The notes under the pieces: generated by a model
What the model saw: the letters and a program-made list of their open reading frames with translations, nothing else
Told to the model about the DNA's origin: nothing
Database searches by the model: none
Position numbers and translations under genes: made by a program
Shown: in pieces, positions 10,990-64,000 of the stretch
How the letters are laid out: each line of letters begins with the position of its first letter
Numbering within the stretch: the first letter of the stretch is position 1
NCBI GenBank assembly: GCA_000004695.1
Contig: CM000152.2
Location: 4,512,001-4,576,000 of the forward strand
Length of the DNA stretch: 64,000 bases
DNA from: Dictyostelium discoideum
Taxonomy: Eukaryota
Direction: 5' to 3'

Positions 10990-11034
<45 letters not shown>

Positions 11035-12845: not shown

Positions 12846-12846
<1 letters not shown>

Positions 12847-13069
12847 AAACATATCCATCATCAATCTAACATCAACTACATTCAATCTATCTACTCTACA
12901 CACTAATTTCTTCAATCCTTGGATTGGGAATAAGAATAGATCTGAATAAACGAGAAAGAAAAAAAAAAAAAAAAATTAAAATTAAAAATCAAAAATATTT
13001 TTATATAAACACATAATTAAAAAAAAAATAATAAAAATAATATAAAAAAAAAAAAAAAAAAAAAAAAAA

Positions 13070-13402: not shown

Positions 13403-13940
13403 TAAAAAAAATAAACAATCAAATGGTAAAAGAAAACTGGGGATTGGAGCCATTACTAATAGATGAATGCAACATAGTAATGCTACCAGATGTGATTAGA
13501 TATTCATGCATACTATTATTTAATAAAGAAGATGATATCTCAATCATTAAAACAAACATTGATGCTATAAAAGGTAGTAAGCATCCAATAAGAGCCTTCA
13601 TCTCTGAATATAACAATAAAGAAATAAGAGATGTTAGAAAAAAAAAAAACACAAGTAATAAAAACCAACAACCAACAACTACAAATACAACTAAATCAAT
13701 ACCATCAACTCCACCAACAACTAATGCATCAACAACCACACCAATAACAACCACACCAATAACAACCACACAAACAACAACCACACCAACAACAACCACA
13801 CATCAATTACCAACAAGCAATACAACAATCTACAACCTAAACAAAACTACTACTACTACTACTACTACTACAAAACCTATCAATAAAATTACTACAAGCA
13901 ATGGTACCAAGTTTCCAATTGCCAGTAGTATTAGAAAATA

Positions 13941-17384: not shown

Positions 17385-17389
17385 GTAGT

Positions 17390-17450
<61 letters not shown>

Positions 17451-17754
17451 ATATAGTTTAAAAAATTTAATACAATTGAATAATAATAATAAAACCTTTT
17501 AACAAACACCGCTGAAAAGACACAAGGACATTCCTTGAAGGTCTGATCACAGGTAAAAAAAAAAAAAAACACCGCTTTTAGGTAAAAAAAAAAAAAAAGT
17601 TATAATATATAAATAAAAACGTAAAACTGATTTTTCGAAAAACGAAAAATTGTTTTTATATTTTATTTTTATTTTTTATTTTCGGTTTTAACAAACCGAA
17701 CTTCGTAAAGTACCAAAATACTTTACAATCCATATTTAATTTTCATTTTGCAGA

Positions 17755-19575: not shown

Positions 19576-20078
19576 TATAAAAAATACAGGTTCAACTGGA
19601 ATTATATAAACACAAATCTTGACCTAGTCAGAACACATGCATATTGGAACTTAATCTCATTAGTTATTCACCAAATATGGATATGGTTATGCAAATCATT
19701 ATTTGACATCAATATAACTCAATCAATTGACAATTGGAACAACCAAATAAACAACACAACACTAGATTATGATATATTAAAATCAAAATGGCACAAGCTA
19801 ATAAGATTGGAATATTCAAGAACATTATCAAACTTTAACCAATACTCAATTAAAAACAACCTCACAAAAACTCAAAAAGAAACCCAATGGTCCGAAACCA
19901 TCAAAAAATTTAAAAAAGAATGGAGCATAAACACAAATGAACCAATTCCAACAATTACACCACCAATTAATTATTAATTACCTAATCTAAAATAACATAC
20001 CATTTTAAATTCACAAAAACTAAAAAACCTAAAATAAATAAATAAAAATAACATACTACAATAGTTTATTTATATCAA

Positions 20079-20103
<25 letters not shown>
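19561..20103 (+). mobile_element. 3' fragment of a TRE-type non-LTR retrotransposon: ORF2 C-terminus, 3' UTR and A-tail.
   Basis: ORF 19561-19977 (...HAYWNLISLVIHQIWIWLCKSLF...) followed by a 3' UTR ending in A19 (20085-20103). The reverse complement of 19870-20090 is nearly identical to 55321-55560, next to the tRNA-Arg locus. Confidence 0.6.
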
Positions 20104-44536: not shown

Positions 44537-47500
44537 ATGGGTTTTAAAGTAAATAAAAATTTAAATGAAACAAATGACAATAGTGATAATGATGTTGCAA
44601 TTATTGGTATTGGATTTAGATTACCATCAGGTAATTTAAATAAATCAAATGATTCTCCAATTATTTTATGGGATAATTTAATGAAAGGATTTGATGGTAT
44701 GGTTGAAACATCAGAAAGATGGAGTGATAATTTCAATCAACTTGGTGAAATTTCAAATAAAAGTGGTGGATTATTACCATTAGATGAATGGAAATCATTT
44801 GATCCATTATTTTTCGGTATTAACCCATCAGAAGCTCAAACAATTGATCCTCAACAAAGAATACTATTAAAATGTACATGGGAGGCAATAGAGGATTCAA
44901 ATATTGATCCAATTAAAATTCGTGGTTCAAAAACATCAGTTTACATGGGTGGTACTTCTGTTGAATATAAAGAATTAAATAAGAATTCAAATGAAATTAA
45001 TCCAAATATTTTTGGTTCAACATTTAATACAATTGCGAATCGTATTTCATATTGTTTTGATCTTAGTGGTGAGTCTATGACATTAGATACTGCTTGTTCA
45101 TCATCTTTAAATGCAATTATCTTAGGTTATCAATCAATTAAAAGTGGTACTTCCAATTTATCAATTGTTGGTGGTGTTAATTTAATATTAGGTATGTAGT
45201 TTTATTAAATTATATAATACATATGTATATATTCATTTTTAATTACTAATAATTTTAAATTTAAAAAATAGATTCAAATTTATCAAAATCTTATTCTTAT
45301 TTAAATATGTTAAGTAAGAAAGAAGGTAAATGTATGTCATTTGATTCACGTGCAGATGGATTCGTTAGAAGTGAGGGTGCTGGTGTATTTATATTAAAAA
45401 GTTTAAAACAATCAATAATTGATGGTAATAATATTTATTGCGTTATTAAAGGAGCAAGTTCAAATATTGATGGTAATGGTTTAAATGATAAACAAAACTT
45501 TTATTCACCATCATCATCTTCACAAGCTGAAAATATTAATAGAGCACTATCATCAACTAAAGGATCTGTAAAAATTGATGATATTGTTTATGTAGAAGCA
45601 CATGGTACTGGTACACCAACTGGTGATCCAATTGAGTTAGAAGCAATTTCAAGAGTTTTCAAAACCAATAATAATGATAATAATAATCAACAACACCAAA
45701 ATCCAATATTAATTGGATCATTTAAAAGTTCCGTTGGTCATTTAGAATCAGCCTCAGGTTCAGCATCATTAGTAAAATGTTGTTTAATGTTTAAAAATCA
45801 ATATTTAACACCCAATGTTAATTTCAAAACACCAAATCCATCAATTAAATTTGATGAATGGAATTTAAAAGTTGTTACAGAACCAATACAATTTAAAGAT
45901 GTAAAGAAATCAAACAACTTTTCAATGATTTTAAATAATTTTGGTATCACTGGTTCAAATTGTTGTTTAATTTTATCACAATACAATGGAAACCATAATG
46001 ATGAACAGGAAAATCAACAACAACAACAACAACAAGGAAAACAATATTTAATTCCATTTTCAGCAAATTCAATACAATCATTAAAACAATATGAATCATT
46101 AATTAATGAAAATCAATTTAAAGAATCAAATGATTTTAAAGAATTTGTTAAACATCAAATATATAGTAAATCAATATCACTTTATCAACGTTCGGTTTCA
46201 ATAGCATCAAATTGGAATGATTTTAATGAAGGCATGAAATCAACAAATAACAACAATAATAAAACACAAACATCAAATTCAAAATCATCAAATATTTCAA
46301 TAATTCCAAAGAATCCAATCACTGTAATGGTATTTGCAGGACAAGGTTCACAATATAGTACAATGGCAATGGAATTATATAATAATGAACCAATATTTAA
46401 AGAATCAATGGATAGATTAGATAATAGATTATTAAGATATTATGGATACTCTGTATTGGAGAAATTTAGATCAAGCTGTGATAGTGATAGTATTCATTAT
46501 CCAACAATTGCTCAACCATCAATGTGTATGCTAACCATATCATTATTCGAATTATATAAACATTGGGGTATTGAAACATCATTTATTATTGGTCATAGTT
46601 TAGGTGAAATTCCAGCTGCTTATTGCTCAGGTATGATTTCATTAGATACTTTATGTTTTTTGATTTATCATAGATCAGTTGCACAAACTCATACACATCG
46701 TAATGGTAGAATGTTATCAATTAATATTAGTCCTGAAGAATATAATTCAAATTATTCATTAAAATACCCAAAAGTTGAAATTGCATGTTATAATTCACCA
46801 ACTTCGATTGTACTTGGTGGTGAAGAAACAATATTAAATCAAATATCAAATGATTTAAAAGAAAAAGGAATATTCTCAGCGATGTTAGGTTCACTATCAT
46901 CATTCCATACATCAAGCCAAAGAATTATTAAAGACCAAGTCATTGATTTAAATATTGAATGTAAATTAGCAAAAATTCCATCATTTTCAACAGTTACAAC
47001 CAATTTATTCAATGAAACGACATTATTCAATTCAGAATATATTTTTAATAATATGGCTCTACCAGTTAAATTTTCACAATCAATTTCAAATCTATTTAAA
47101 CATATTGAAATAAATAATTTAGGAAGTGATATTGTTTTCATTGAATTAGCACCACATCCAACATTACAATTTTATTTAAAACAAATGGCATCATCATATG
47201 AAAAAGTCAATTCAAATTTAAAAATATCAACATATTCACCACTTCACAAGAAAAAGAATGATATCGAAGAGATTCAAAAAACAATTTCACAACTTTATTG
47301 TAATAATGGGTACAGTATTAATTTTAAATCACAATTTAATAATGATTTTAAAATTAATAAAATCAATTCAATATTACCAAATTATCAATGGGAAGATGTA
47401 ATTCACTGGAGAGAAGATTTAATTCATCAAAAACATAATACTCAAGGACCACCAATTGATCAACTTGGTTTATCATTAATTGAAAGTTCACCAAATTTAA

Positions 47501-47809
47501 AATCATATCAAACATTTATTGATATTTCTAGAAAACCATTCCAATATCTTAAAGGTCATTTTGTGAATGGCAAATATTATTTCCCAGGTTGTGGTTATAT
47601 TGATAATCTTTTAAAAATTTATGGTTCACAAGATTTTACAATTGCTTCAATGGAATTTAAATCACCATTAATTTTTACGGAAGGTGTTAGTCAATGTTTA
47701 CAAACAAACATTTTCCAAACTGGTAAATCAGAATTCAGAGTTAACTATCATTTTAAAGATACAAAATCAAATGAATGGATACAATCATCAGTTGCTCATT
47801 TCCAATTAT

Positions 47810-47879
<70 letters not shown>

Positions 47880-50800
47880 TAGTGACGATGGAAATAGTAC
47901 CAATAAAAAATATAATATTGAAGATATTATAAATAATAAATGCAATTTCACAAAATTATCAAACAATGAACTTTATGAAAATATTAAATCAAAAACTGGT
48001 ATATATTATACTGGAGAATTTAAAACAGTATCAAACCTTTATGTGGGTGAAAATTGTTCATTAGCAGAAATACCAATAACAATTAAATCTTATGAATCAT
48101 CATTTTTCTCACCATCAATATTAGATACTTGTTTACATGGTACAATTGGATTAATTGATGAAAAATCTCAAATTGTATTTGAAAGAGTTGAAGGATTCGA
48201 ATACCATTCTTCAAATATTCCATCACAAAATGAATTATCATCATTAAAACATACAAAGCTATATTCATTAACAGAATCATTCAAAAGGGTTGGAGATTCA
48301 TATTCAAGTTCAATTACAGTTATGTTGGAGGATGGTAGAGTTTTAATTGAATTTAAAAAGGTTGTATGTAAATCTTTAACTAATGTTATTGATTCATTAA
48401 TAATACAATCACCATTAAATGAATTATATTCAACATGTATGCAAACAATTGATTCACCAATTCAACCTTCTTTATCATCATCATCATTGATACAACTACT
48501 TGGCAACACCAATGAAAAAGTTAAAATTAATTATAGTCAATTCATTTCAAATCAATTGTATTACAATATAATTAAAAGATGTCCACAACTTAATATTGAA
48601 ACAATCAAATCAAAGAATATTGAACAGTTAAAAGAAAGTTACAACTCTTTAAATACTAAATATTCAAAATTATTCAAATCAGTATTTGAAACAATTCAAT
48701 CGATTGGTATAAATAATGAAGATAATAGTGAATTTAATGAAACAAACATTCAGCATTATAAAATCTTATTGAAATCAACTAGAATAATTGCAAAATTATT
48801 ATTCCCATTAAAAGATGATGATTTAAGTAAGGATACAGGACAATCATTATTTGAAAATGGAATTTTAGATGAATTCAATTCAAATTATTTTAATAATAAT
48901 AATCAAGTTATTAGCAACATAATTAAAGAATCACTTTTACCAATATTAAATGAAAAGATGGTATTCAGAATATTTGGATTTGGAGGTTTTGGATCATCAT
49001 TATCATCAGTTGTTTTAAATAAAATCAATGAATTACTTCAAGAATTTCCAAATAGCGAAATTGATATAGAATTCACTCATGCTGATATTTCATCATCATC
49101 ATCTTCTTTTGGTAGTAGTACACCAAATTTCAAACCAAATTTCCCACAAATAAATGAAAAAGTTCATATAATTTATAAATCATTAGATCTTGAAAAACAA
49201 TTATCAAGTGAACAAATGATTAAACCATCATATTATGATTTTGTAATCATGTCAAATGTTTTACATTTTACAAAAGATGTTAAATCGGTATTGGATCAAA
49301 TCCATCAAATTTTAAAACCAAATGGCCAAATTATATTAGTAGAACCTATTAATAAATCAATTTTACTTGATAATATATTTGGTATTTTCGATCAATGGTG
49401 GAGTTTTACAGATTTAAATATTAGAAGAAATGATTGTTATATTTCAAAAGATACTTGGAATAGCTTACTATTAGATTGTAATTTTGATAATAGTAAAGTT
49501 TTAATTTCAACAAAAGAAATTTCAAACTTTTATATAATTCAAACTCAAAAACCTTCAATTTCAAATTTAAATACAAATTCAACTACAAATGGTGATACAG
49601 TTATAATCTATGGTGATGAATTAAAATTTATAAGTTCTGATAGTAATAAAGAAATTAAAATTTCAAATATTCAACAATTTAATGAATTAATTGAAAAATC
49701 AATAATAACAGATGAATCAATTATTTACTTTACAAAATCAACAAATCAATTAACAGTAGATAATTTCAAATTAGTAACATTGGAATATATTCAAATCAAT
49801 CAAAAACTATTATCAAATAATTTAAAATGTAAACATGTATTGATTACATTAAATTCTGACAATATGAATTATTTATCAGCATCATTAATAGGAGCAACTA
49901 GATATTTTGAAGAATTTCCACAATTAAATTTATTCAATTTAGATTTCGATCAAAATTCAATAAATAATAATGAATTAGAAAAAACAATTAAATTGTTATT
50001 AGATTCAAACCAATTCATTCAAAAAGAATTCTTTATAAAGAATAGTAAAGTTTATTACGAAAGATATAAGAGAGAATTGAATTTAAATAATTTCTTTAAA
50101 GAATCCCAATCATTTTCAAATGAAAAGAACCAATTATACGCAAAATTATCACCAAATTTAGAATATATTTTAAAATCAAAAAAGGTTATAAAAGATGATG
50201 AAATTGAAGTAGAAGTAAAAGCAACAGGTATTAATTATAAAGATTATTTAATTTATTGTGGATTAGTATCAGCTGAATCAATTAATCGTTATGGTGATGT
50301 TAATAATCCTGAATTTGGTATTGAATACTCTGGTATTATTTCACGTATTGGTAATAATATAACAAATTTTGAAATTGGTGACCAAGTTTATGGTATGGGA
50401 TTAGATACAATTTCAACTCATGTAATTGTAAATCCAAACTATTGTTATCATAAACCAACAAATATCAGTTTTCAAGAAGCAGCATCAATACCATGTGTTT
50501 ATTTAACATCATTATGCTCAATATTTAATATTGGATGTTTAAGTGTTAGTGGTAATGAATCAATTTTAATTCATTCAGGTACAGGTGGTGTAGGATTATC
50601 AGCATTGAATATATTAAAATGGAAAGGTCATAAATCTCATGTATTTGTAACAGTAGGTTCAAAAGAAAAAGAAAAATACCTACTAGATACATATGGTGAT
50701 TTTATAACTGGAATTTATTCAACAAGAAATAAAAATTATGTTGAACAAATTAAATTAAAATTAAAACAATTAGGATCAAATAAGAATGGTGTAGATTTAA

Positions 50801-53616
50801 TATTGAATACATTATCAAGTGATTATATGGAATCAAATTTCAAATGTTTAAATACAAGTGGTAGAATTGTAGATTTATCTGTGACTCATTTAAATCATAA
50901 TGAATATATTAATAATAATAATTTTAAATTCAATTTTGGTTATCATAATTTTGAATTAACATTTATTAATAAATTTTTAATTCAAAAATCATTAAAGAAA
51001 ATTAAAATTGGAATTGAAAGCGGTGAATTAAAATTAATACCAATAACTGCATATTCAAACTCAAATGCAAAAGAAGCAATTGAATTTATTAATCAACGTA
51101 AACATATTGGTAAAATAGTTTTAAATAATGATAATGATATTTTAGATTCATTATTTAATAATCTTTCAAATGAAAGAAATTCAAAATTTACAACTCTTAA
51201 ACCAAATTATCAAATAAATAAAGACCATTTGGGTTCAAATATAATAGTTACAGGTCAATCTGGTATAATTTTAGAGATTTTAAAATGGATTGTTAAATTT
51301 TCAGAAAATGTTAAAAATATTATTATATTATCAAAATCATCTATGAAATGGGGTTTGGAATTATTAATTAAAAAGAATAAACATATAAATTTCAATTTTA
51401 AGAGTATTGATATTGGTGATTCAAATCAAGTTGATAAATCAATTGATGAAATTTTAAATGAAAATTCAATAACAAATATTGATTCAATTTTTCATTTTGC
51501 ATTCGAACATACTATATGTGATGTAAATGATATTGAAATTAATCATTTGACCAAATCTCATGGTGCAAAAACAATGGGTGCAATTAATTTACATAATCAA
51601 TCAATTAAAAGAAATTGGAAATTAAAACAATTTATTTTATCATCATCAGTAACATCGATGATTGGTTCAACTGATCAATGTACATATGTTTGTTCTAATA
51701 GATTATTGGATTCATTATCAAAGTATAGAAATTCTATTGGATTACCTTCAATATGTACAAACTATGGGTCAGTACAATCTGCAGGTATTGTTTCAAGAAA
51801 TAAATCTATTGAAAAATTATTAGATGCTCAAGGTTTAGATCCATTATCAATTAATATGATATTAGGTTCATTAGATTCACAAATTCAAAATGTAAACAAA
51901 TCAACAAATTTAATGGTATCACCGTTCAATTTTAATAATTTCTTTGAAACTTTTAAAAATCATTCAATGATTCATAAATTTGATTTCATTACAAATCTTT
52001 TAGAAAATAATAAATCAAAAAATAGTAATAATGGTAATACAGAAGGAGAATCAAATATTGATACATTATTTTTAAATAAAGTTTCAGAATTATTATCAAT
52101 GGAATTACCAAAGATTAATCAGGATTTGAAGTTGGTGGAGTATGGTTCAGATTCATTATTAATTGTTCAATTAAAAAATTGGATAGATAAAGAAATCTTT
52201 CCAAATTTAATTACAATTCAACAACTTCAAACTAATACAATTTCATCATCAATTAAAATCATTACAAATCAATTTAATTCTAAATCAACTGATGGTAGAA
52301 AAAAACAAAAACAAAATGGAATTAATGTTTCATCAAATAAATCATCATTACCAACTTTAGAATTTTGGAAAAATGAAACTAAACTTGATGAAGAAGAATT
52401 TAATTTTATATTAGATTCTTCAACCAAATCAAAAATAAATCATAAAGATCAATTAAAAGATAATGAAAAAAGAATTCTTTTAACTGGTAGTACTGGATTT
52501 TTAGGTGCATACCTACTTTGGCATTTAATTCAAATGGACAATTGTAAAATTGTTTATTGTTTATTAAGAAACAAAAAACTATTTAATAATCCATTAAATG
52601 ATATAATAGATAATTTAAAACATCATCAATTATATGATAAACAATTAAATGAAAGTCATTTATCAAAAATTGTTGCAGTTGTAGGTGATTTATCAAAAAT
52701 TAAATTTGGTTTATCAGATGATAATTATTCATTACTTTCAAATGATACAAATTTATTATTAAATTGTGGTGCTGATATTAATTTATCATCAAATTATGAA
52801 GAGTCAAAACAAGTAAATGTAGTTGGTACAAAAGAAATGATAAAAATATCATTAATTGGTAATATAAAACCAAAACCAATTATTACAATCTCATCATTTT
52901 CAGTATTTTATAATCAAAAGTTAAATCAAGAGTTTGATGAATCAATTGTTACACCAAAACTTGAAACGATTAATGATTTACCAGCAGGTTATATTCAAAG
53001 TAAAGTTATTTCAGAAATTATATTAACAGAAGCATCATCAAGATTCAATATACCATCAGCAATAATCAGAGCACCAAGTATTTTCTCAAATCCTGAAACT
53101 GGTATTGGTCATAGTGCTGATATCATTCAATTAATGTTACAATCTTGCTTTAAATTAGGTTATTACCCAAGTGGTAATGGAGTTGATTTTGATCTTCTTT
53201 GTTCACCAATAACATGGGTCGCTGATAATACTATTAAAATTATTTTTAATGATAATATTATTAACAACAAAGAACCTCAACAATTAACATCACCATTAAA
53301 ACCAAATATTTACAGTGTATATGGAAAAGTTTTAGATTTATTTGAGATTTTACAAGTATTAAAGAGTGATGAAGGTGGCAATTGTAAAGAAATTGAAATT
53401 AATCAATGGAAGCAAATGGTAATGGATTCAAAAGAAAAAGCATGTATTAAATTAAGAACTTTTCACACTTTACAATTTGATGGTAGAAATATTTTAAATA
53501 AAGGTCATGGAATTTCAAATAAACAAAAATCATATCTACAATCAATTGGATCTTTTGGAAATGGTGGTGAAATCACTAATCAAATGATATTCAAGAATGT
53601 TCAATCAAATAATTAA
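44537..53616 (+). CDS. Iterative type I polyketide synthase, about 2999 aa, with domains KS-AT-DH-cMT-ER-KR-ACP and a C-terminal thioester reductase (R) domain. Two exons: 44537-45191 and 45272-53616.
   Basis: KS: [22 protein letters not shown] (active Cys), then after the intron [48 protein letters not shown]: GHSLGE. cMT-like region: ...[28 protein letters not shown]... ER (MDR fold): ...[16 protein letters not shown]... KR: [15 protein letters not shown]: [14 protein letters not shown] (phosphopantetheine Ser). Terminal R: [17 protein letters not shown] (NAD(P)-binding) ...[13 protein letters not shown]... One 80-bp intron (GTATGT...AG, phase 1) sits in the KS. Confidence 0.9.
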
Positions 53617-53970: not shown

Positions 53971-54041
53971 TGCGTATGCTGGGAATCGAACCCAGTTCGC
54001 ATCCGTGGCAGGGATGCATCATACCACTAGACCACATACGC
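53971..54041 (-). tRNA. tRNA-Gly (anticodon GCC), 71 nt.
   Basis: Minus-strand sequence GCGTATG-TG-GTCT-AGTGGTA-TGAT-G-CATCC-CTGCCAC-GGATG-CGAA-CTGGG-TTCGATT-CCCAG-CATACGC-A. The acceptor stem is perfect, the T-arm has the canonical TTCGATT loop, and the anticodon loop has U33 and GCC. It is very close to eukaryotic tRNA-Gly(GCC). The track ORFs 53843-54037 and 53970-54260 over it are spurious. Confidence 0.85.
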
Positions 54042-54149
54042 TTTTTTGATATTTTGAAAAAAGATAACGTAATTGTATTTTTAAAAATAGAAGATCGAAA
54101 AAAACAAACAATCTCTTTTTTTGATTATTTCATTTTTCATATAAAAAGC

Positions 54150-54184
<35 letters not shown>

Positions 54185-54230
54185 GGAACCCAAGTTAATC
54201 AGAAAATTTCCAGATTTTTTAACTTATTTA
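54042..54230 (-). promoter_or_regulatory. Conserved 5'-flank block shared by the tRNA-Gly and tRNA-Arg genes; the second copy is at 56007-56130 and again at 57290-57440.
   Basis: Both minus-strand tRNA genes are preceded, in plus-strand reading, by tt(t)tttgatatttt at positions -1 to -12. At -80 to -110 both have ttt(t)tgattatttcatttttcatataaaaa, then a poly(A) run, then cct(gg/cc)gaa...atttccaga(a)tttt. Coordinates are 54118-54150/54181-54225 and 56086-56120/57381-57425. Confidence 0.3.
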
Positions 54231-54381
54231 AGTAAAATAAAAAAAATAGAAAGAAAATAAGATGAAAATCACAAATATGTCATCAACATCAATCACGAAG
54301 CCGACGATAAAATAAAAAAGATTAAGAAAAAAGTGTGGACGAAAAAGATGTTATAATCAAAAGTAATAATACAATAGAAAG

Positions 54382-54430
<49 letters not shown>

Positions 54431-55299
54431 CTAACCCCTCTTTTAGAGACCGTGTAAAAAACTACAAATAAAATGAGATCTTGCATCTCAAGGAGAAGCA
54501 ACTAATAATTGCGTTATCCAATTCAAAAAAAAAAAGTATTTTCAAAAATAGCTTTGAATTAAAACCTTCACAGTTAATCCATTAAAGGAAATAAACAACA
54601 ATTATTAGTTTTACTTAATAATTATTTTAAAATATTGGTTGTAATTTCATTCTTCTAACATAAAATAGACTTTTTTTTATTTGAATCGGAATATAATATA
54701 TTTTTTTAAATAACATCATCACAATTTAAATTTAGTGTGATTAAAAATAAATTTGAGAGTCACTTTATTTTTTTTTTGGAAAATATCAAAATGCGAATTT
54801 AAATTTTAAAATGTAAAGTAGTAATTCTTTTTTTATTTATTTTGAATTACTTAAATAAAGAATTTTAATTTTAAAATATAGTGTATTATTATTATAATTA
54901 TTATTTTTTTTTAAAATATATTCAGTTTTAAATATGTTGGTATTTAAAATTAAATGAATTAAATATTGAAATTGTTGTTAATTATAAGAATTGGTCAAGG
55001 GTACTATATTCAGAAGATACAATAAGCTTGTCATGTTAATTCAAATTAATAATAAAGTATGTGTAAAATAAATATATGTAGTAATATTATCAGATATTTA
55101 AAATTAATGTTTTATTTGTTTTTATTTTTTAAGAATAAACACGATGACGCTATGAAATCAACAAAAAACAAATCGCATAAGTCGACTTCACCTTTAGAAA
55201 AGCGATGTGACAAAAATTCTAACAAAAGTTAAAACGAAACCTCAAATAACAAAACCATCACAATTATTTTTTTTTTTTTTTATTTTATTATAATATAAT

Positions 55300-55835
55300 T
55301 AATCAGATTTTTTTTTTTTTTTTGATATAAATAAACTATTGTAGTATACAATTAGTATGTAATTTTTATTTATTTATTTTAGGTTTTTTAGTTTTTGTGA
55401 ATTTAAAATAGTATGTTATTTTAGATTAGGTAATTAATAATTAATTGGTGGTGTAATTGTTGGAATTGGTTCATTAGTGTTTATGCTCCATTCTTTTTTA
55501 AATTTTTTGATGGTTTCGGACCATTGGGTTTCTTTTTGAGTTTTTGTGAGGTTGTTTTTAATTGAGTATTGGTTAAAGTTTGTTTTTTTTTTTTTTTTTT
55601 TAATATTGGATTAACAAGATTGATATATGTCCATCTGTGTTAATACGAGTTTTATTTAATATTTATTTATAGGCTTATCATTTAAGCTGAAGGGTTATTT
55701 TAATCATATGAATTGATCAAAAGATATAATATTTGGGAGAGATGATTCTGGAATACAATAGTAATTAGCTGTTGTTTTTCTTAGCTTGATCGTTGAGGTG
55801 ATTAAAGTTTGATAAAGTATTTAATTAATCAGATA
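55300..55835 (-). mobile_element. Two tandem 3' fragments of TRE3-type non-LTR retrotransposons on the minus strand, downstream of the tRNA-Arg gene. Each ends in poly(A), which reads as poly-T on the plus strand.
   Basis: 55321-55560 is the reverse complement of the 3' end of the 19561-20103 element. 55600-55835 is the reverse complement of 12600-12845. Poly-T tracts at 55305-55322 and 55585-55610 are the A-tails. Orientation and position (3' of a tRNA, 5' end toward the tRNA) fit TRE3 behaviour. Confidence 0.6.
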
Positions 55836-55839
55836 TCGA

Positions 55840-55847
55840 ACCCATGA

Positions 55848-55881
<34 letters not shown>

Positions 55882-55925
55882 TAAAAGCGGTGTTAGAACC
55901 CATGACCTATAATAGATATTTACTA
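55840..55925 (-). promoter_or_regulatory. Duplicated external B-box-like elements downstream of tRNA-Arg, flanking a minimal TRE3 tail insertion.
   Basis: In minus-strand sense, 3' of the tRNA: ...GGTCATGGGTTCtaacaccgcttttaggt(A)26GGTCATGGGTTCGATATC. GGGTTCGAT is B-box-like (GGTTCGANTCC). The 12-bp direct repeat GGTCATGGGTTC flanks a 17-bp-plus-A26 insert whose sequence (acaccgcttttaggt + An) also occurs at 17565-17595, after another TRE3 tail. Confidence 0.35.
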
Positions 55926-55933
55926 AAAAAATT

Positions 55934-56006
55934 CACCCATTGTGGGTCTCGATCCCACGACCTGCAGCTTAGAAGGCTGCCGCAATTCCAACTTTGCTAA
56001 ACGGGC
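55934..56006 (-). tRNA. tRNA-Arg (anticodon UCU), 73 nt.
   Basis: Minus-strand sequence GCCCGTT-TA-GCAA-AGTTGGAA-TTGC-G-GCAGC-CTTCTAA-GCTGC-AGGTC-GTGGG-ATCGAGA-CCCAC-AATGGGT-G. The D, anticodon and T stems are perfect. The acceptor stem has two G-U wobbles (1-72 and 5-68), and the T-loop has A at position 54, which is unusual and makes a slightly degenerate or low-activity copy possible. Confidence 0.6.
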
Positions 56007-56053
56007 TTTGATATTTTTTCATTTTTAATATCTTTAATAACTACTTATTTGAG

Positions 56054-57316
56054 AGTAAGAGAAAAAACATCAACAACAACACTTTTTTTATTTGATTATT
56101 TCATTTTTCATATAAAAAAAAGACTTAAAAAAAATAAAATAAAATACACTTAGAGTAAACTACTTTATTTCTTTATTTTATTGTAATTTATTTTTTTCTT
56201 TTTTTTGAAAATTTTGCGAAGCAAAATTGAAAAAAAAAAGGAAAAAATAATCAGTAAGAGAAAAAACATCAACAACAACACTTTTTTTATTTGATTATTT
56301 CATTTTTCATATAAAAAAAAGACTTAAAAAAAATAAAATAAAATACACTTAGAGTAAACTACTTTATTTCTTTATTTTATTGTAATTTATTTTTTTCTTT
56401 TTTTTGAAAATTTTGCGAAGCAAAATTGAAAAAAAAAAGGAAAAAATAATCAGTAAGAGAAAAATCATCAACAACAACACTTTTTTTATTTGATTATTTC
56501 ATTTTTCAGATAAAAAAAAGACTTAAAAAAAATAAAATAAAATACACTTAGAGTAAACTACTTTATTTCTTTATTTTAGTGTAATTTATTTTTTTCTTTT
56601 TTTTGAAAATTTTGCGAAGCAAAATTGAAAAAAAAAAGGAAAAAATAATCAGTAAGAGAAAAAACATCAACAACAACACTTTTTTTATTTGATTATTTCA
56701 TTTTTCATATAAAAAAAAGACTTAAAAAAAATAAAATAAAATACACTTAGAGTAAACTACTTTATTTCTTTATTTTATTGTAATTTATTTTTTTCTTTTT
56801 TTTGAAAATTTTGCGAAGCAAAATTGAAAAAAAAAAGGAAAAAATAATCAGTAAGAGAAAAAACATCAACAACAACACTTTTTTTATTTGATTATTTCAT
56901 TTTTCATATAAAAAAAAGACTTAAAAAAAATAAAATAAAATACACTTAGAGTAAACTACTTTATTTCTTTATTTTATTGTAATTTATTTTTTTCTTTTTT
57001 TTGAAAATTTTGCGAAGCAAAATTGAAAAAAAAAAGGAAAAAATAATCAGTAAGAGAAAAAACATCAACAACAACACTTTTTTTATTTGATTATTTCATT
57101 TTTCATATAAAAAAAAGACTTAAAAAAAATAAAATAAAATACACTTAGAGTAAACTACTTTATTTCTTTATTTTATTGTAATTTATTTTTTTCTTTTTTT
57201 TGAAAATTTTGCGAAGCAAAATTGAAAAAAAAAGGAAAAAATAATCAGTAAGAGAAAAAACATCAACAACAACACTTTTTTTATTTGATTATTTCATTTT
57301 TCATATAAAAAAAAGA

Positions 57317-57317
<1 letters not shown>
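56054..57317. repeat. Tandem array of about 6.4 copies of a 199-bp unit immediately 5' of the minus-strand tRNA-Arg gene, terminated by A60.
   Basis: Unit: agtaagagaaaaaacatcaacaacaacactttttttatttgattatttcatttttcatataaaaaaaagacttaaaaaaaataaaataaaatacacttagagtaaactactttatttctttattttattgtaatttatttttttcttttttttgaaaattttgcgaagcaaaattgaaaaaaaaaaggaaaaaataatc. Units start at about 56054, 56253, 56452, 56651, 56851, 57049 and 57247. Copies are more than 98% identical. A (A)60 run follows at 57318-57380. Confidence 0.9.
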
Positions 57318-57383
<66 letters not shown>

Positions 57384-57660
57384 CCGAAAACATTCTTTCA
57401 GGGAATTTCCAGAATTTTAAATTTTTAAAGCCGAATAAAGATTTTAAAGAAAAAAAAAAGAAATGAATAAATTGGCAAATACAATAATGACAGTGTTAGA
57501 GACTCAAAACTAAATTAATTTAAAGTTAGTATGAGCTCAACAACGTAACAAATTCGCGCATCTCCATGTAAAAATATTTCATTTAATTTTTATTTTTATT
57601 TTTTAATTTTTTAATTTTTTATTTTTTCAGTCAAAAAATAAAAAATTAAATTAAAAAAAC

Positions 57661-58420
57661 ACAGCAAAGAAAAATGCACCTTTAAAGCAAATTTAAAGAA
57701 AAGTTGATTTAAATTGGATTTAAATTGAATTTAAAGCCGCGTTTAAAAAATTCATTTTTAAGGTAATTTTTAAGGTAATTTTTAAGATATTTAAAAATGC
57801 CTTTAAAATTTGCTTTAAAATAAATTTTTAAGCAATTTTAAAGGTGATTTTAAAGGTGATTTTAAAGGTGATTTTTAAGGTAATTTTTAAGATAATTTTT
57901 AAGATATTTAAAAATACCTTTAAAATTTATTTTAAATTAATTTTAAATAGGATTTAAAGTAGATTAAAAGTAGATTTAAAGTGAATTTAAATTTCCTTTA
58001 AACATAAATTTAAGGTTTTTAATAAAAAAGATCTAATTTTAGCACAAAAAAATGGGGATAAAATATTCTATCATTTTTAAATTTTTCATCAAAGCAATCA
58101 AATGGTGTAATGGTTGTTGAGACTCCCCTTTGATAGAGGGTCGGCGGATCGAATCCCTTTTGGGTAATTTTTGAAAAATTAAAAAAAAATTTTAAAAAAT
58201 TTATCCGTTAAATAACGGATTCGAACTCAGGACCTCGCTTTTAAAGCCATTAAAAAGGTAATTTTAAAGGTAATTTTAAAGGTAATTTTTAAGGTGATTT
58301 TAAAGTAACCTTAAAAATTACCTTTAAAATTACCTTTAAAATTGCTTTAATTCAGGACTTTAAAGCAAATTTAAATTTAATTTAAAGCGAATTTAAAGGT
58401 GGTTTTTTCTTTGCTGTGAA
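57661..58420. repeat. Large imperfect palindrome. The arms are built of ttaaag / ggtaattttaaagg short repeats and enclose tRNA-like / B-box-like fragments.
   Basis: 57661 acagcaaagaaaaatgcacctttaaagcaaatttaaag... is mirrored by ...ctttaaaggtggttttttctttgctgt at 58375-58420. Internal units (ggtaatttttaaggt..., aaaattacctttaaa...) are mutually complementary. The centre (58098-58260) holds a tRNA-Gln-like A-box (ATGGTGTAATGGTT) and two inverted B-box-like motifs (GGATCGAATCC at about 58150 and GGATTCGAACTC at about 58218). Confidence 0.55.
58098..58168 (+). pseudogene. tRNA-like fragment or degenerate tRNA pseudogene, Gln/Glu-like.
   Basis: TGGTGTAATGGTT is identical to the D-arm/A-box of eukaryotic tRNA-Gln. 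A CTTTGAT anticodon-loop-like segment and GGATCGAATCC (B-box-like) follow. Neither the D-stem, the T-stem nor the acceptor stem can be paired, so this is not a functional tRNA. Confidence 0.25.
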
Positions 58421-59393
58421 ATTAAATTAAATTAAAATTTAAAAAAATAATAAAAATTCTGATTTTTCGGTTTAGTTGGAATAACGCCCTTACTTTTAAT
58501 TATCTCTTTTATGTATGTTTACTTTTATGATATTAGTCTTTCACTCTTTCTATCCTTCATATTAAAAAACATTACTTTAAAGATTGGACTGTTTGATAAA
58601 AGATTGAACAAATGTGACAATGGATTGAAGATTAGTGTGAGTGACTTTTACACTTTTTTTTTTCTAATTTTAACATAAAACAAATACATTAAAACAAATA
58701 ATTAGATACAATCCTTATATTTCGTATACAATGACACCTCATGATGAAGAAGTCGACTCTTCAGATTAGAGGAATAACAGTAGTATTTAAAACAAAATAA
58801 AAATGCATTACAATGGCCCTTCTGTTTGCAAGATTAACGCTGTACTGCTTAGGCGGTACAACGACACTTCCTACTCACATTGTAAACATGCATCTTTTAT
58901 AAAGTAATATAAAACAAGATTGTATCAATTAATTTAATAATAATGCTCAAATACAAAGACACCACAATATAAATTATTAGTGGAATAACAGTTAAACAAA
59001 GACACCACAATATAAATTATTAGTGGAATAACAGTTAAATAAAGACACCACAATATAAATTATTAGTGGAATAACAGTTAAATAAAGACACCACAATATA
59101 AATTATTAGTGGAATAACAGTTATATTGATGCATTGTTATAATTAAAATAATTTAAGATAATATTTATTATCAATTAAATAATATAAAGACACCACAATA
59201 AAAATATATTAGTGGAATAACAGTTAACATATATTAATACTTATATTTAATTATTTAATTAAAAATTAAATTAAATTAAATTAAATAAATTAAATTAAAT
59301 TATATAATTAAATTATGTAAATTAAATTAAAAAATTAAATTATAAAATTAAATTATATTTAATAAATTTTATATATAATTGTTGGTGAAAGTC

Positions 59394-60542
59394 ATGTCAT
59401 CAACTACTACTCCTTCAAAGAAAGCCATCCGTAAAGCCAAAGTGTCTTCCACCGCCAAACGTGCCGCTGAAGTGACAACCGCCTCCGATGATGCTATTAC
59501 TGTTCAAGTAAAATCAAAAAAGACTCTTCGTCCCACTGAAGTTGATGATGAAATTTATTCAACTGAAAGCACTGATGTATCCGACGTCGAAGTCAGAGAG
59601 AAAGTGCCAAAGAAATCAAAGACCAATTCCATTGAAGCTAAAACCATTGACGCTTTAAAAAATGCTGCCACTGCTGTCATCTTCATGAATCTCTTTACCA
59701 TCCACTGCTCCCAGAATGGTGTTGAACCAACCTTGAAGACCATTATGGACAATGGTGCTGCATCAAATGAATTATTTCAATTGCTTCAACCTACCCACAA
59801 TGAATCAGTTAAGAACAACGATAAAATTGAAGGTGAAACATTGAAGAAGCTAATCCACCGTAACTTTAGATCCAAGACTTTGGTTCCATTCAAAACTGAC
59901 TACGAAGCTGCCAACACTAAAGTAGTCGAAGCTATTAACCATCGTAACTGCTACTCAGCCCAAGATGTTATAAAAAACATCGAAGCCATTATGAGTTACC
60001 ACAATGTAATTAATCCGGTGTATCTCATCCATGGTACTGCTGAAGTTCAATTAGAGTATCTAAGATCAATTTTAGATAATAATATCCTTGCTTTGTTAAA
60101 GATGGTCGTACCAGACTGGTTACAAACTGATGTTGCAATCAAACTCAACACTCAAACCGATATCACCGAGTGTCGTGAAGCCATCACCGAGTTGGTTCTT
60201 AACAATGCTGATAAGTTCTCGAGAAGAAGACCTTCCGATTCCGCATCGAATACTGATGAGAAGTTTCCATTAAAAAAGAATCATGCTACTCCAAATCATA
60301 ACTCTCATAACAGGAATTCCTTTGATGCTCAAGCTGATAAGATTAGAGCTGCAATATTACCCGAAATAAGAAAAGACTCTAAGGTAGACCTCAAAAAGAT
60401 AAGAAGCAGTTTCATCGTTTACCGTCAAAGCAAAGGCTACTGTCTCAATTGTGGTAAATCAAATCACTCCACATCTACATGTAGAATTGATCCGGTCGAT
60501 GCCAAAGCCAATCCAGGTCCATCAGCCAAAAAGCAACAATGA
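59394..60542 (+). CDS. LTR-retrotransposon Gag with a C-terminal CCHC zinc knuckle.
   Basis: Track ORF 59379-60542. The first ATG is at 59394. CX2CX4HX4C lies near the C-terminus. A TGA stop is followed in frame by pol. Confidence 0.7.
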   Translation: MSSTTTPSKKAIRKAKVSSTAKRAAEVTTASDDAITVQVKSKKTLRPTEVDDEIYSTESTDVSDVEVREKVPKKSKTNSIEAKTIDALKNAATAVIFMNLFTIHCSQNGVEPTLKTIMDNGAASNELFQLLQPTHNESVKNNDKIEGETLKKLIHRNFRSKTLVPFKTDYEAANTKVVEAINHRNCYSAQDVIKNIEAIMSYHNVINPVYLIHGTAEVQLEYLRSILDNNILALLKMVVPDWLQTDVAIKLNTQTDITECREAITELVLNNADKFSRRRPSDSASNTDEKFPLKKNHATPNHNSHNRNSFDAQADKIRAAILPEIRKDSKVDLKKIRSSFIVYRQSKGYCLNCGKSNHSTSTCRIDPVDAKANPGPSAKKQQ

Positions 60543-63500
60543 CTCGATGAAGGTGATGAGTCCAAGTCAAAGATTTTAAATAAAAATTATAAAATTTCTC
60601 AATATCATCACCTTGAGGATAATGATTACCCAGTGAACAAAGATTCACTTTATACTCTTAACTCTTTTTATAATCAAAACATTGTTAAACAGTTACATCA
60701 ACAAAGCCAGCAACATGATGTTCATAAAAACATCAACAAACTTAAAGAATACGTCAAAGACTCATATGGTATAAAACTAGTTCCTGATACAACCGTTCCA
60801 ATTCCAAAAGCTGTTGAATCAGAGATGAAGTATAAACCACAGAAGATTGAATTTAATACTCCAACAGAGTTAACAAATGTTCAAGATAAAAACTATACTG
60901 TAAACATATTCAATCGTCCAAAGATATTAAATTCTAGTAAAGAATTAATTAACGATGAAGAAGATGAATTGCTTTACACAATTAAATTCGATAAAGAAAC
61001 AAACAAACCAATCATCTCATTATTACATAGTACTGGTACAAGTGATACTGCTCTCATTCCGACTCTCAAATGTTTAATCGTTCCAAACAGAGAAAACATG
61101 GATAAACCCAAGATTATAATTAACTCTCATTCCAAAGAAAAACAATTCAAATTAATTCTCGATACTGGAAGTAATGTTAGTTTAATCAATAAGAGGTTGA
61201 TTTCAAAAGATATGAAGAACCACGTTCACAAAACGAAAGCCAAGATTAACTTCCCGCTACTAGACGTCAAAGAAGAGTTTGTTGAACAAATCAATATACA
61301 AGTTAACAATGAAATTCATAACTTCTTTATTATAGAATTGGATATCATTGATGTACTTTTCGGTAATGATATCCTTAAGGACTCTATCATTAACCAAAAA
61401 GATAAAATAATCAAGTTGAATAATAGTACATACAAAATTAATTATCAACAGTCGAATCAATTACATTGTAATGTAAAAGCTCCAAGAAAACATGTTACCG
61501 TATCCAATGATAATCAGTCACAGTCACATAATCTACTAGATGATGATGAAGATATCAAAGAACAAGTTACAAAGTTTGTTGAAAGCATCCCATCACAACT
61601 TTGTGATATACTGGTTAAAACTAATCCAGAAGAAGAAGAGATACAAGCAGTACGTGATTTCATTAATGATTCATTCGAAGATGTTATAGTAGATAAACTT
61701 CCTGATATTCCAGATCAGATTAACAATTCCAGAAGAGGTAATATCATACATAATATCATAATAAAGAAAGATCAAGATGTTGAACCAACAAAGAAACAAA
61801 TCTATTATTCAACAGATGATCATAAGAGACATGTCGAAGAAATGGTTCTCAAATTTATAGATTTAGGTATTATCAAAAGATCAGAATCAAATTACTCATC
61901 TCCAATCATGTTATTAAAGAAGAGAGATTCATGGCGTGTAGTCCACGACTATCGTCAACTAAATAAAGTCACTGTTAGAGACGATCATCCATTCACTCCG
62001 GTTGATAGTCTTTTAAATCAATGTAAAGATTCAAAGCTTTTCTCAAAGTTTGACATGATTATGGGTTATTTCCAAGTGTTAATTAATCCAGAACACGCAA
62101 AGTACACCGCTTTCATTACACATATTGGTAAATTTGAATATACTAGAATGCCACAAGGTTTAGTCAACTCTCCATCCACATTCGCCAGATTGATGGTCGA
62201 AATATTTGGAAAAATCAAAAGTTTATTACAATACTTTGATGATCTTTTGGTTCATTCAAAACTCGACTACATGGTACATTTCATTGAAATCATTAGAATG
62301 CTTCTATATTGTAGAAAGTACCTATTATTCATTTCAAGAGAAAAGAGTGAAATGTTAAAGACTGAAGTTGATTTCCTTGGTTTTCACATTCATAAAGATG
62401 GTATATCTCCAAGAGCTGCAAAGGTTAGAGCTATCTCTGAGTTACCTGAACCAAGAAACGCCAAAGAAGCTGAAGCTGCATTAGGTCTTTTTGGATTCTT
62501 CAGGAGACACATTGAAAATTACGCTGAAAAAACCTATCACCTTTCCAAAGAATCAAAAGGAAAAAACAAGAAAACACTTTCTGATGAATCACTCAAAGAA
62601 TTCAATAATCTAAAGAAAGAGTTTGAAGGTGAAAATATTGTCGCTATTCCAATTGAACAAGATAACTCCATACCAATAGATATCGAAAAGGTTAAAGCAT
62701 CAACAGACATGCCAATCCATTCAGATAATAATAATCTAAACAATGGTAGTTTTCACTTGTATTGTGATGTTAGTGATAAAGCATTATCAGGTGTATTATA
62801 TCAAATTCAAGGTAATAAATTCAAAGTCATTTGGTTTCACAGTAGAAAACTTACTGATACTCAAAAGAGGTACAGCATAGGTGATAGAGAGTTCCTTTCA
62901 ATCATTGATTCTCTAAAGAAGTTTCAACATTTATTAATTGGTAAAAAGGTTTCAATCTACACTGATCACCAAAATCTTACATATATTATCAATAAGTCAA
63001 ACGATAAACCGTTCACAAAGAGACAAGATAATTATATGAAATATATTAAAGAATTTGATTATGAATTAAGACATATAAGTGGTAAAAAGAATGGTATAGC
63101 TGATTTTTTATCTCGTAAATATGATAATTTCCAATGGGATGAATCGTTTTTAAATAAAATTAAGGAAGAACAAATCAATTCTCAATGGCTATTAGAGATG
63201 AAAAAGAATCCAAATTTATGCATTGAAGAAATTAATGATATCTGTTACCTTAGTGAAGATGGGTTCAAGAAATTAATCATCATAGATAAAGAAACTATTC
63301 ATACCGTCATTAGAGAATATCACGATACCAAATATAGTGGTCATCACGCTTTAGATATCACATACAATAATATAAGACAAGATTACTATTTCAAAGAAAT
63401 GTTTTCTATTATCAAGAGGTACATAAAGTCTTGTGCAACATGTCAATTGAACATTAACCGTAAAGATAATGGTATACTCCAAAGTTTAGAAATTCCCTTT

Positions 63501-64000
63501 GAAGTTTGGAGAGATATATCAATCGATTTCTTATCGCTACCAAAAACAATGTATGCAATAAACGGATTTACAGTTGAAGTCGATCAAGTTTGTGTCATTG
63601 TTTGTAGATTATCTAAAATGGTTCATATAGTTCCATGTCATAAGACAATAGATGCCCAACATACCGTTCAATTATTGTTGAATCATGTGTTCAGACTCCA
63701 TGGTTATCCAAGAACAATCGTCTCCGATAGAGATCCAAGATTCCTTTCAGAAATATGGGAGAGATGGGCAAAGACGATGGATTCTAAACTCAAGATGACT
63801 GTGGCACACAGAGCACAAGCTGATGGTCAAACTGAAAGAATGAATAGAGAAATTATTAGAATATTAACTAAAGCCTCAACAGAGTATGGGGAGAATTGGT
63901 CAGATATCATTCCACTTATTGAATTTGCAATGAACTCATCAATGAGCAAGTCTACAAAGATGTCACCATTCCAAATCGTTTATGGATTCAATCCACCAAC
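60543..64000 (+). CDS. LTR-retrotransposon Pol polyprotein (PR-RT-RH-IN), partial. It has no start of its own, is in frame with gag after the TGA, and runs off the window.
   Basis: A continuous open frame of about 1150 codons with no stop, hand-translated. Motifs are those listed for the element. It is absent from the ORF track, probably because it has no in-window stop. Confidence 0.7.

Follow-up and report, generated by a model that had tools for sequence, protein, structure and literature searches.

Two neighbouring tRNA genes of Dictyostelium discoideum that share an upstream sequence block have very probably both been hit by TRE5-A (formerly DRE), a non-LTR retrotransposon that targets tRNA genes, and the shared flank would then be the 5′ architecture of this element. 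Both lie in the window, a stretch of 64,000 nt (GenBank assembly GCA_000004695.1, contig CM000152.2, positions 4,512,001 to 4,576,000 of the forward strand), to which all window coordinates below refer. The tandem array of 199-bp units in front of one of them is the promoter A-module of TRE5-A, so that the finding is real but belongs to biology that is already known. The name TRE5-A rests on architecture, position, abundance and four C-module nucleotides rather than on alignment to the deposited TRE5-A.1 reference, and the subfamily assignment is not exact because full-length copies on two of the comparison contigs (L002 and L003) are without a 3′ B-module, contrary to the published AB-ORF1/ORF2-BC scheme.

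Background

The abstract of Marschalek et al. from 1992 is said to describe DRE as A modules, one or several, with B after them (AnB). TRE5-A integrates 47 ± 3 bp upstream of tRNA genes, with its own 5′ end turned towards that of the tRNA (PMC5391098, PMC3159450). Its A-module is a unit of 200 bp with promoter activity, and the B-module includes the start of ORF1 (PMC3159450, PMC5633606). Its ORF2 has endonuclease, reverse transcriptase and zinc-finger domains. A study of the C-module hairpin of TRE5-A.1 mutated the nucleotides T15, C26, A35 and C38 (PMC3159450).

The tRNA genes and the shared block

Two minus-strand tRNA genes, Gly(GCC) and Arg(UCU), lie 2 kb apart, as the first-pass annotation had placed them; ARAGORN and Rfam agree on both. 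The genes and their native upstream spacers are:

53971..54041 (minus strand): tRNA-Gly(GCC), ARAGORN and Rfam RF00005 (63.6 bits), probable target of the proximal TRE5-A-derived insertion
54042..54088 (minus strand): 47-nt native spacer from tRNA-Gly to the element, including the tRNA 5′ box (tRNA sense AAAATATCAAAAAA), based on the sequence, the motif positions and the flank table
54075-54088: left copy of the target-site duplication at tRNA-Gly, GTATTTTTAAAAAT, inside the 47-nt spacer
55934..56006 (minus strand): tRNA-Arg(UCU), ARAGORN and Rfam RF00005 (59.2 bits), probable target of the array-bearing TRE5-A
56007..56053 (minus strand): 47-nt native spacer at tRNA-Arg, including the tRNA 5′ box (tRNA sense AAAAATATCAAA)

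Remnants of TRE3 were seen downstream of tRNA-Arg.

The 28-mer TTTGATTATTTCATTTTTCATATAAAAA occurs eight times in the window, once upstream of tRNA-Gly and seven times upstream of tRNA-Arg, against 0.01 occurrences expected. Its gene-proximal instances lie 79-106 nt upstream of tRNA-Gly and 85-112 nt upstream of tRNA-Arg, which bears out the earlier placement of a block at about -80 to -110 at both genes. The reported succession of an A/T homopolymer and a AATTTCCAGA box is likewise present, with AATTTCCAGA following the A-run at both genes. The box alone is not significant (two in the window versus 0.55 expected), but the flanking ~60 nt do align. That both genes have the same upstream sequence is correct insofar as the block is common to them; the Gly copy is only ~80-87% identical to the Arg copies.

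Homology to the element begins at positions 54089 and 56054, in both cases exactly 47 nt from the tRNA 5′ end, with the reading direction leading away from the gene. The orientation is the same at both loci: the A-modules lie nearest the gene, farther out comes the B-module with the ORF1 start or the C-module and its tail, and the element lies on the strand opposite to the tRNA.

Homologous elements upstream of other tRNA genes

Other D. discoideum assemblies (contigs L002-L007) served for comparison. Compared with the 5′ ends of full-length elements in L002, L003 and L007, the 199-bp unit shows 97-99% identity, with 98.5% over its full length at positions 8175-8370 of L002. These elements are non-LTR retrotransposons with ORF1 and an ORF2 that contains a reverse transcriptase, and they sit 40-48 nt upstream of other tRNA genes. 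The L002 element, 46 nt upstream of tRNA-Ala, encodes a 451-aa ORF1 and an ORF2 with an RVT_1 domain; further elements with the 199-bp unit lie at tRNA-Asp (L003) and tRNA-Asn (L007). More divergent A-modules were found in an element at tRNA-Ser (L006, 91.5% identity) and in one at tRNA-Val (L004, 87%), the ORF2 of which is only 42% identical to the L002 type. The L004 element points to another member of the TRE5 family (TRE5-B or TRE5-C), with the same 5′ layout and a C-like 3′ end; the Arg array differs from it in belonging, at 97-99% identity, to the type of L002, L003 and L007. RVT_1 was detected in ORF2 of the homologous elements (P0026, P0027, P0106, P0107), and ORF2 is abundant, forming a cluster of 39 proteins. 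It is absent from both copies in the window, the Arg copy being cut by a Skipper-type element and the Gly copy being ORF-less.

All elements examined have the same order: one or more full modules, a partial A-module, oligo(A), the stretch CC...TCAG..AATTTCCAGA.TTTT and the ATG of ORF1. Searches for the 28-mer in metagenome contigs gave no exact match. With the C-terminal 799 aa of the neighbouring polyketide synthase as query, a homology search gave no orthologue, the best match being 68% identical, in D. dimigraforme.

These comparisons bear on the origin of the block. Had it been confined to the two neighbouring genes, simple local duplication would have been indicated, but the unit also lies upstream of tRNA-Ala, Asp, Asn, Ser and Val. 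The two genes are close neighbours and share a strand, but it is extremely improbable that the flank of one was carried to the other, 2 kb away, by local segmental duplication. The 47-nt spacers of tRNA-Gly and tRNA-Arg are unrelated except for the short box next to the gene (flank table), the structures differ (six full and one partial A-module, B and the ORF1 start versus A′, a 3′-type B and C), the A-modules are only ~80-87% identical, and closer copies exist elsewhere, at 98-99% for the Arg copy (L002, L003, L007) and at 91-94% for the Gly B-module (L005).

The array upstream of tRNA-Arg

Tandem Repeats Finder (TRF) reported an array at 56054-57337 with a period of 199, 6.5 copies and 99% matches, and the ~6.4 near-identical 199-bp copies described before are thus confirmed, as six full units and one partial unit. 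The parts of the element are:

56054..57246 (plus strand): six full TRE5-A A-modules of 199, 199, 199, 199, 199 and 198 bp (TRF, repeat search and per-copy comparison)
57247..57380 (plus strand): terminal partial A-module (first ~73 nt, through GACTT) and internal oligo(A) at 57320-57380
57381..57493 (plus strand): start of the 5′ B-module (CCTCCGAAAAC...AATTTCCAGAATTTT...), 97-98% identical to L002 8488-8599, L003 and L007

By our own parsing, the full copies start at 56054, 56253, 56452, 56651, 56850 and 57049, and the partial copy at 57247. Four copies are identical; three substitutions are private to copy 3, and an A-run shorter by 1 nt leaves copy 6 at 198 bp. The partial A-module with oligo(A) recurs in L002, L003, L004, L006 and L007. 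In the B-module, the ORF1 start codon lies at 57463 (MNKLANTIMT); the matching ATG in L002, L003 and L007 opens an ORF1 of 409-454 aa. Homology to intact elements stops at 57493.

The array had been described as ending in (A)60. A long A-run does follow, of 61 A (57320-57380, TRF), and it is the internal tract at the A/B junction instead of a poly(A) tail, because intact elements have the same order of partial A-module, oligo(A), AATTTCCAGA box and ORF1 start. Taking the A-runs for the 3′ tails of two tandem elements was considered and rejected, as in intact elements the A-run stands between the partial A-module and the ORF1 leader and the A61 tract is without a flanking target-site duplication.

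The long A-runs at the end and the position upstream of tRNA genes had also led to the proposal that the block is the 3′-terminal module, plus poly(A) tail, of an unrecognised upstream-inserting element. It was right in seeing the end of an element, but the element is the known TRE5-A and the A-run is internal. As originally worded, the proposal has very little probability: the block opens intact elements, in which ORF1 comes after the A-run, their actual 3′ terminus is formed by the C-module and a short tail, and the element family has been known since 1989 (PMC3159450).

Full A-modules number one to two in the five other elements compared and six upstream of tRNA-Arg. With copies that are 99-100% identical and hard to assemble, and with only one or two full copies in those five elements, the number six could be an assembly artefact or a strain-specific length, the array itself being real. 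We consider this improbable, since the three private substitutions of copy 3 and the 1-nt deletion of copy 6 provide anchors for assembly, and since two identical full copies occur in the independent long assembly L006.

Nested insertions at tRNA-Arg

The Arg copy is dead, because a Skipper-type LTR retrotransposon has broken its ORF1 after codon 10, and this insertion is itself interrupted:

57494..58652 (plus strand): left LTR of ~400 bp (57494-57659 + 58419-58652) of a Ty3/gypsy Skipper-type retrotransposon, cutting TRE5-A in ORF1
57660-58418: 759-bp terminal-inverted-repeat (TIR) element splitting the LTR, 98% identical to L002 13467-14224

In L007, the two LTRs of an LTR element share 95-100% identity with the Skipper-type LTR of the window, downstream of which lie gag and pol. 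The tRNA-Arg element is seen up to this insertion; its remainder, including the 3′ end, lies beyond the window.

The ORF-less copy upstream of tRNA-Gly

The copy at tRNA-Gly is a complete, 447-bp, ORF-less A′-B-C derivative of TRE5-A, which arose by one insertion with its own target-site duplication. A 14-bp duplication, identical at 13 of 14 positions, brackets 54089-54535:

54089..54150 (plus strand): A′, 62 bp of an altered, incomplete A-module, from A-module position 1 onwards (AGAAGA; canonical AGTAAGA)
54151..54180 (plus strand): internal oligo(A) of 30 A at the A/B junction (TRF), like the junction in every TRE5 5′ end examined
54181..54377 (plus strand): 3′-UTR-type B-module (CCTGGGAACCC...AATTTCCAGA...), 91-94% identical to L005 9403-9121
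54378..54425 (plus strand): internal oligo(A) of 48 A at the B/C junction (TRF); such a tract also precedes the C-module in L002 and L005
54426..54535 (plus strand): C-module (54426-54524, TRE5-A 3′ end) and A11 tail (54525-54535)
54536-54549: right copy of the target-site duplication, GTATTTTCAAAAAT

A′ is 81-89% identical to the A-modules of L002, L003, L004 and L006. The B-module has an 88-bp internal deletion relative to the L005 copy, and its first ~85 nt are homologous to the 5′ B-module. At 97-98% identity, the C-module (54426-54524) matches the L002 element at its 3′ end, and it has T15, C26, A35 and C38, counted from the 3′ end of the module, all four in predicted stems.

That a full element gave rise to the Gly copy through a deletion from its 5′ to its 3′ B-module was also considered and appears less likely, A′ (81-89%) being more diverged than C (97-98%). 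Rather unlikely, in our estimate, is a further proposition: that either the Gly copy is a full-length member of a distinct ORF-less, SINE-like TRE5-A lineage, and not a TRE5-A that decayed or lost its 5′ part, or the six-module array is a hypervariable promoter minisatellite that differs between strains. For transcription, a member of such a lineage would rely on its own short A′ leader, and for mobilisation in trans on the proteins of TRE5-A.1. The start at A-module position 1, the altered A′ and the separate target-site duplication are the features of the Gly copy that bear on this point.

The short box adjoining tRNA genes

The gene-adjacent motif noted previously (tRNA sense AAAATATCAAA) was found at both tRNA-Gly and tRNA-Arg. 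Within 20 nt of the gene (-1 to -20), AAAATATCA occurs exactly at four and in a loose form at six of ten sampled tRNA genes (post-hoc P ~2e-9). AAAATATCA is a true general tRNA-gene flank box that is unrelated to the transposon, and it is the only part of the shared flank that behaves as a host tRNA-gene 5′ flank box, in the sense of a short motif that keeps a fixed small distance to many unrelated tRNA genes and does not depend on transposons; the -80 block does not behave in this way.

The first-pass annotation had favoured a conserved 5′ flank that modulates Pol III, a view that finds no support for the -80 block, the A-run and the AATTTCCAGA box, which are TRE5-A 5′ modules. As a host cis-regulatory tRNA 5′ flank, the block would set the Pol III start site or efficiency and would have been amplified at tRNA-Arg; its similar distance from two tRNA genes and the real short box AAAATATCA next to many of them speak for such a function, which we nevertheless regard as highly improbable. 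Upstream of three of the ten sampled tRNA genes (L003 Lys, the second L004 Val and L006 Ser at 6252) there is no block, and at three further genes truncated elements take its place. Where found, the block is contiguous with TRE5 ORF1/ORF2 or the C-module and always begins at the point where TRE5 integrates, and a target-site duplication encloses the Gly copy. Moreover, the published A-module is a Pol II promoter that fires away from the tRNA (PMC3159450).

Discussion

The arrangement at both genes is very probably that of TRE5-A, which integrates ~47 bp upstream of tRNA genes and turns its 5′ end towards them. This 5′ end consists of at least one 199-bp A-module, the Pol II promoter of the element, then a last, partial A-module, an internal oligo(A) of variable length and a B-module that begins with the AATTTCCAGA box and carries the ORF1 start codon. 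Among the tandem copies, unequal recombination or slippage in replication may raise and lower the number of A-modules, and each A-module may be able to act as a promoter, as in mouse L1 monomer arrays. A-modules are identical within one element and differ by 1-9% between elements.

The likeness to TRE5-A extends to the insertion 47 nt upstream with the 5′ end facing the gene, the 199-bp A-module or modules and the B-module with the ORF1 start and, in the Gly copy, to the C-module hairpin with the published nucleotides and the target-site duplication. There is no essential difference. The Arg copy has six full A-modules and is disrupted by a Skipper-type element, while the Gly copy, an ORF-less A′-B-C form, matches neither the published A.1 nor the A.2 form.

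The 5′ UTR of mouse L1 contains ~200-bp promoter monomers in tandem and in variable number, with a truncated unit, followed by a non-monomeric region and the ORF1 leader. The parallel lies in a tandem promoter unit of ~200 bp at the 5′ end of a non-LTR retrotransposon; sequence and host are unrelated, and tRNA-gene targeting is a property of TRE5-A. To integrate safely upstream of tRNA genes, yeast Ty3 takes its bearings from the Pol III transcription complex (PMC6101501, PMC5006619). It resembles TRE5-A in targeting Pol III genes, upstream of tRNA genes, and differs in being an LTR element, in inserting at the transcription start instead of 47 bp upstream and in having no promoter-module array.

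The locus is a tidy case of layered insertions at one safe haven, in which TRE5-A received a Skipper-type LTR element and this in turn a small inverted-repeat element. If an ORF-less, SINE-like lineage did exist, it would be of interest in this genome, as D. discoideum is reported to lack processed pseudogenes. The host-derived part that remains of the shared flank is the short AAAATATCA box adjoining the gene. The significance of the finding is mainly corrective: without masking of repeats, scans for conserved 5′ flanks of Dictyostelium tRNA genes will turn up TRE5 5′ ends once more, since a TRE element is present at most of these genes (61%, PMC5006619).

A shared block upstream of two tRNA genes

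The window consists of D. discoideum DNA of ~22% G+C, whose protein fragments have counterparts in AX4 and in further isolates. Two of its tRNA genes, both called by ARAGORN and Rfam, share a 5′ flank:

53971-54041, minus strand, tRNA-Gly(GCC)
55934-56006, minus strand, tRNA-Arg(UCU)

At both genes the 28-mer TTTGATTATTTCATTTTTCATATAAAAA is followed by an A-run and a AATTTCCAGA box. By chance, 0.01 occurrences of the 28-mer would be expected in 64 kb; it occurs 8 times, with one copy lying upstream of tRNA-Gly and the other seven upstream of tRNA-Arg. At the latter gene, Tandem Repeats Finder detected an array at 56054-57337 with a period of 199 bp, 6.5 copies and 99% matches, followed by 61 A. 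Copy-by-copy parsing resolved six full units, of which four are identical, one carries three substitutions and one measures 198 bp; a seventh stops ~73 nt in and runs into the A-run. The first-pass annotation had thus described the shared flank and the array accurately. The homology between the two flanks begins at 54089 and 56054. Each of these positions is exactly 47 nt away from where the tRNA gene starts, and the 5′ to 3′ direction of the homologous blocks points away from the gene.

Identification of the block as TRE5-A

Reference loci were reached via proteins. A query with the reverse transcriptase ORF from a different retroelement of the window matched Dictyostelium ORF2 proteins, whose encoding contigs led to six further loci. 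One of these, L002, contains a 6.6 kb element 46 nt upstream of tRNA-Ala(AGC), with an ORF1 of 451 aa and an ORF2 that encodes RVT_1. Over its whole length, the 199-bp unit of the window matches the first 196 nt of this element at 98.5% identity, and a second match covers the next 91 nt at 97.8%. In L002, one full unit is followed by a partial unit ending in GACTT, ~48 A and CCTCCGAAAACATTCTTTCAGGGAATTTCCAGAATTTT..., with the ORF1 ATG (MNKLANTIMTESTE...) located 82 nt further on. This layout recurs in four more loci:

L003, upstream of tRNA-Asp
L007, upstream of tRNA-Asn
L006, upstream of tRNA-Ser, with two full units
L004, upstream of tRNA-Val, diverged, the element's ORF2 being only 42% identical

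The shared layout in L002 and these four loci makes the "A/T homopolymer" of the first-pass annotation an internal junction tract, and it identifies the 199-bp unit with the published A-module of 200 bp and the "atttccaga box" with the beginning of the B-module. Both blocks derive from a retrotransposon that arrived by targeted integration, and the array is the multiplied 5′ promoter module of the element. The A-module acts as the Pol II promoter from which plus-strand RNA is made, and another promoter can substitute for it (PMC3159450); the B-module holds the ORF1 start (PMC3159450, PMC5633606). The alternative originally offered, the end of an unrecognised upstream-inserting element, was right in kind, but the A-run is internal and not a tail, and the element is well studied.

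For the proximal end of DRE, the former name of TRE5-A, Marschalek et al. reportedly described in 1992 a single B module preceded by one A module or several, and also a distal "BC.ABC" form in which the A module is slightly altered. Both copies in the window fit these forms. Different elements are 1-9% apart, whereas four of the six A-modules in the window array are mutually identical and the two full modules of L006 are identical past the first three nucleotides. From this difference we infer that the number of A-modules may shift via unequal recombination or replication slippage. Copies differ in the length of the oligo(A) tract, too (61, ~48, ~40, ~28 and 30). Mouse L1, with its promoter monomers in tandem, offers a functional analogy to the array but no kinship.

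At the TRE5-A 5′ junction of L006 (7967-7972), the first module reads GGG, not AGT, and the junction in L007 (1186-1204) shows an 18-nt 5′ truncation with unrelated filler, consistent with reports that TRE5-A copies carry non-templated nucleotides and 5′ truncations. The 3′ UTR exists in two forms (L002 14200-14772 versus L005 9620-8940, another reference locus). In L005 a ~283-bp B-type module lies between the upstream segment and the C-module, whereas in L002 an A-run connects the two directly. Since the published scheme predicts a 3′ B-module that is absent from the full-length L002 and L003 copies, subfamily labels are only loose.

Insertions in the TRE5-A copy at tRNA-Arg

The segment 56054-57493 is 95-98% identical to the reference TRE5-A elements, and the alignment stops after ATAATGACAG, ten codons inside ORF1. 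The sequence from 57494 (TGTTAGAG...) is a Ty3/gypsy LTR, with 57494-57659 and 58419-58652 being 95-100% identical to each of the two 400-bp LTRs that an L007 element carries. The insertions are:

57494-64000, running off the window end, Skipper-type Ty3/gypsy retrotransposon, inserted ten codons into TRE5-A ORF1
59394-60542, Skipper-type gag-like ORF with a CX2CX4HX4C knuckle
from 60546, Skipper-type pol ORF with RT, RNase H and integrase domains
57660-58418, 759-bp terminal-inverted-repeat (TIR) element, interrupting the Skipper-type LTR

Because the LTR breaks ORF1 after ten codons, this TRE5-A copy is inactive, with nothing intact left for its array to drive. The two-ORF layout of the Ty3/gypsy element fits that of Skipper (PMC5633606). 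In L007, an element 99.9% identical to the one in the window separates ORF1 from ORF2 in another TRE5-A and has the opposite orientation; such elements have thus entered TRE5-A at least twice. In the leader between LTR and gag, a 43-bp tandem repeat is present four times with 99% matches (58953-59123), with more degenerate copies nearby; the L007 copy carries these repeats too.

The 759-bp element is 98% identical to L002 13467-14224, an insertion within the TRE5-A 3′ UTR. It has the TIRs CACAGCAAAGAAAAA...TTTTTCTTTGCTGTG, is filled with TTTAAAGGTAAT-like repeats of 12-bp period, appears to generate a 2-bp duplication and is possibly a small non-coding DNA transposon of the thug or DDT type.

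The TRE5-A copy at tRNA-Gly

Compared with the copy at tRNA-Arg, that at tRNA-Gly is a different, complete unit of 447 bp between GTATTTTTAAAAAT (54075-54088) and GTATTTTCAAAAAT (54536-54549). Its parts are, in order:

altered partial A-module, 62 bp, starting AGAAGA (canonical AGTAAGA)
30 A
B-module, 197 bp, 91-94% identical to L005, with an 88-bp deletion
48 A
C-module, 99 bp
11 A

The L005 match of this B-module is of the type located between ORF2 and the C-module, in a 5′-truncated copy. Homology between the 5′ and 3′ B types is clear only in the first ~85 nt (78% identity) and weak further on. For TRE5-A.1, the mutations T15C, C26A, A35C and C38A, numbered from the 3′ end, were placed in the stems of a predicted hairpin (PMC3159450). 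At positions 15, 26, 35 and 38 the C-module of the window reads T, C, A and C, as does that of L002, and all four nucleotides fall in predicted stems. The C-module is an independent link to the published work.

Other repeats and genes in the window

An insert downstream of tRNA-Arg (55839-55908) reads, on the minus strand, TAACACCGCTTTTAGGT (17 nt) followed by 29 A; it is bounded by a 12-13-bp duplication, GGTCATGGGTTC, within the external B-box-like motif. A full-length TRE3-type element elsewhere in the window ends in these very 17 nt (extreme 3′ end, 17569-17587), and the insert is a TRE3 insertion that is 5′-truncated almost completely. More repeat remnants follow at 55308-55801, on the same side of the gene. 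There, reverse-orientation matches of 99% identity link 55579-55801 with 12616-12839 within the TRE3-type element and with pieces of L002 and L005, and 55308-55582 is 95% identical to 19829-20092 of the window. Further features are:

11794-11875, tRNA-Leu(AAG)
10817-11746, minus strand, 5′-truncated TRE5-A upstream of tRNA-Leu(AAG), comprising ORF2 C-terminus and 3′ UTR, 92-96% identical to L002
~11900-17598, plus strand, full-length TRE3-type element downstream of tRNA-Leu(AAG), its ORF2 (13941-17384) with endonuclease and RT domains
44537-53616, polyketide synthase gene, 2999 aa, with one 80-bp intron (45192-45271)

For the polyketide synthase, the protein database yielded no orthologue of ≥70% identity and no match longer than ~1300 aa; the missing orthologue probably reflects the candidate collection of the search, not biology.

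A near-gene box in the flanks of tRNA genes

The comparison covered the 60 nt that precede each of ten tRNA genes, of which three are from the window and seven from the fetched loci. At a distance of ≤20 nt from the gene, AAATATCA is present at four of the ten (Gly, Arg, Ile and Ala) and AAAT[AT]TCA at six, against backgrounds of 1.3 and 3.2 per 10 kb per strand, respectively (post-hoc binomial P of ~2e-9 and ~1e-12). In the 3′ flanks from the same comparison, the known external B-box-like motif GGTTCGA is present. Consensus boxes in both the 5′ and 3′ flanks of tRNA genes were reportedly described by Hofmann et al. in 1991. The near-gene box is general to Dictyostelium tRNA genes, beyond these two neighbours. 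Beyond ~20 nt from the gene, the initial reading of the flank as a shared Pol III module is wrong. The block shared by the two genes is a known feature of TRE5-A, a well-studied element.
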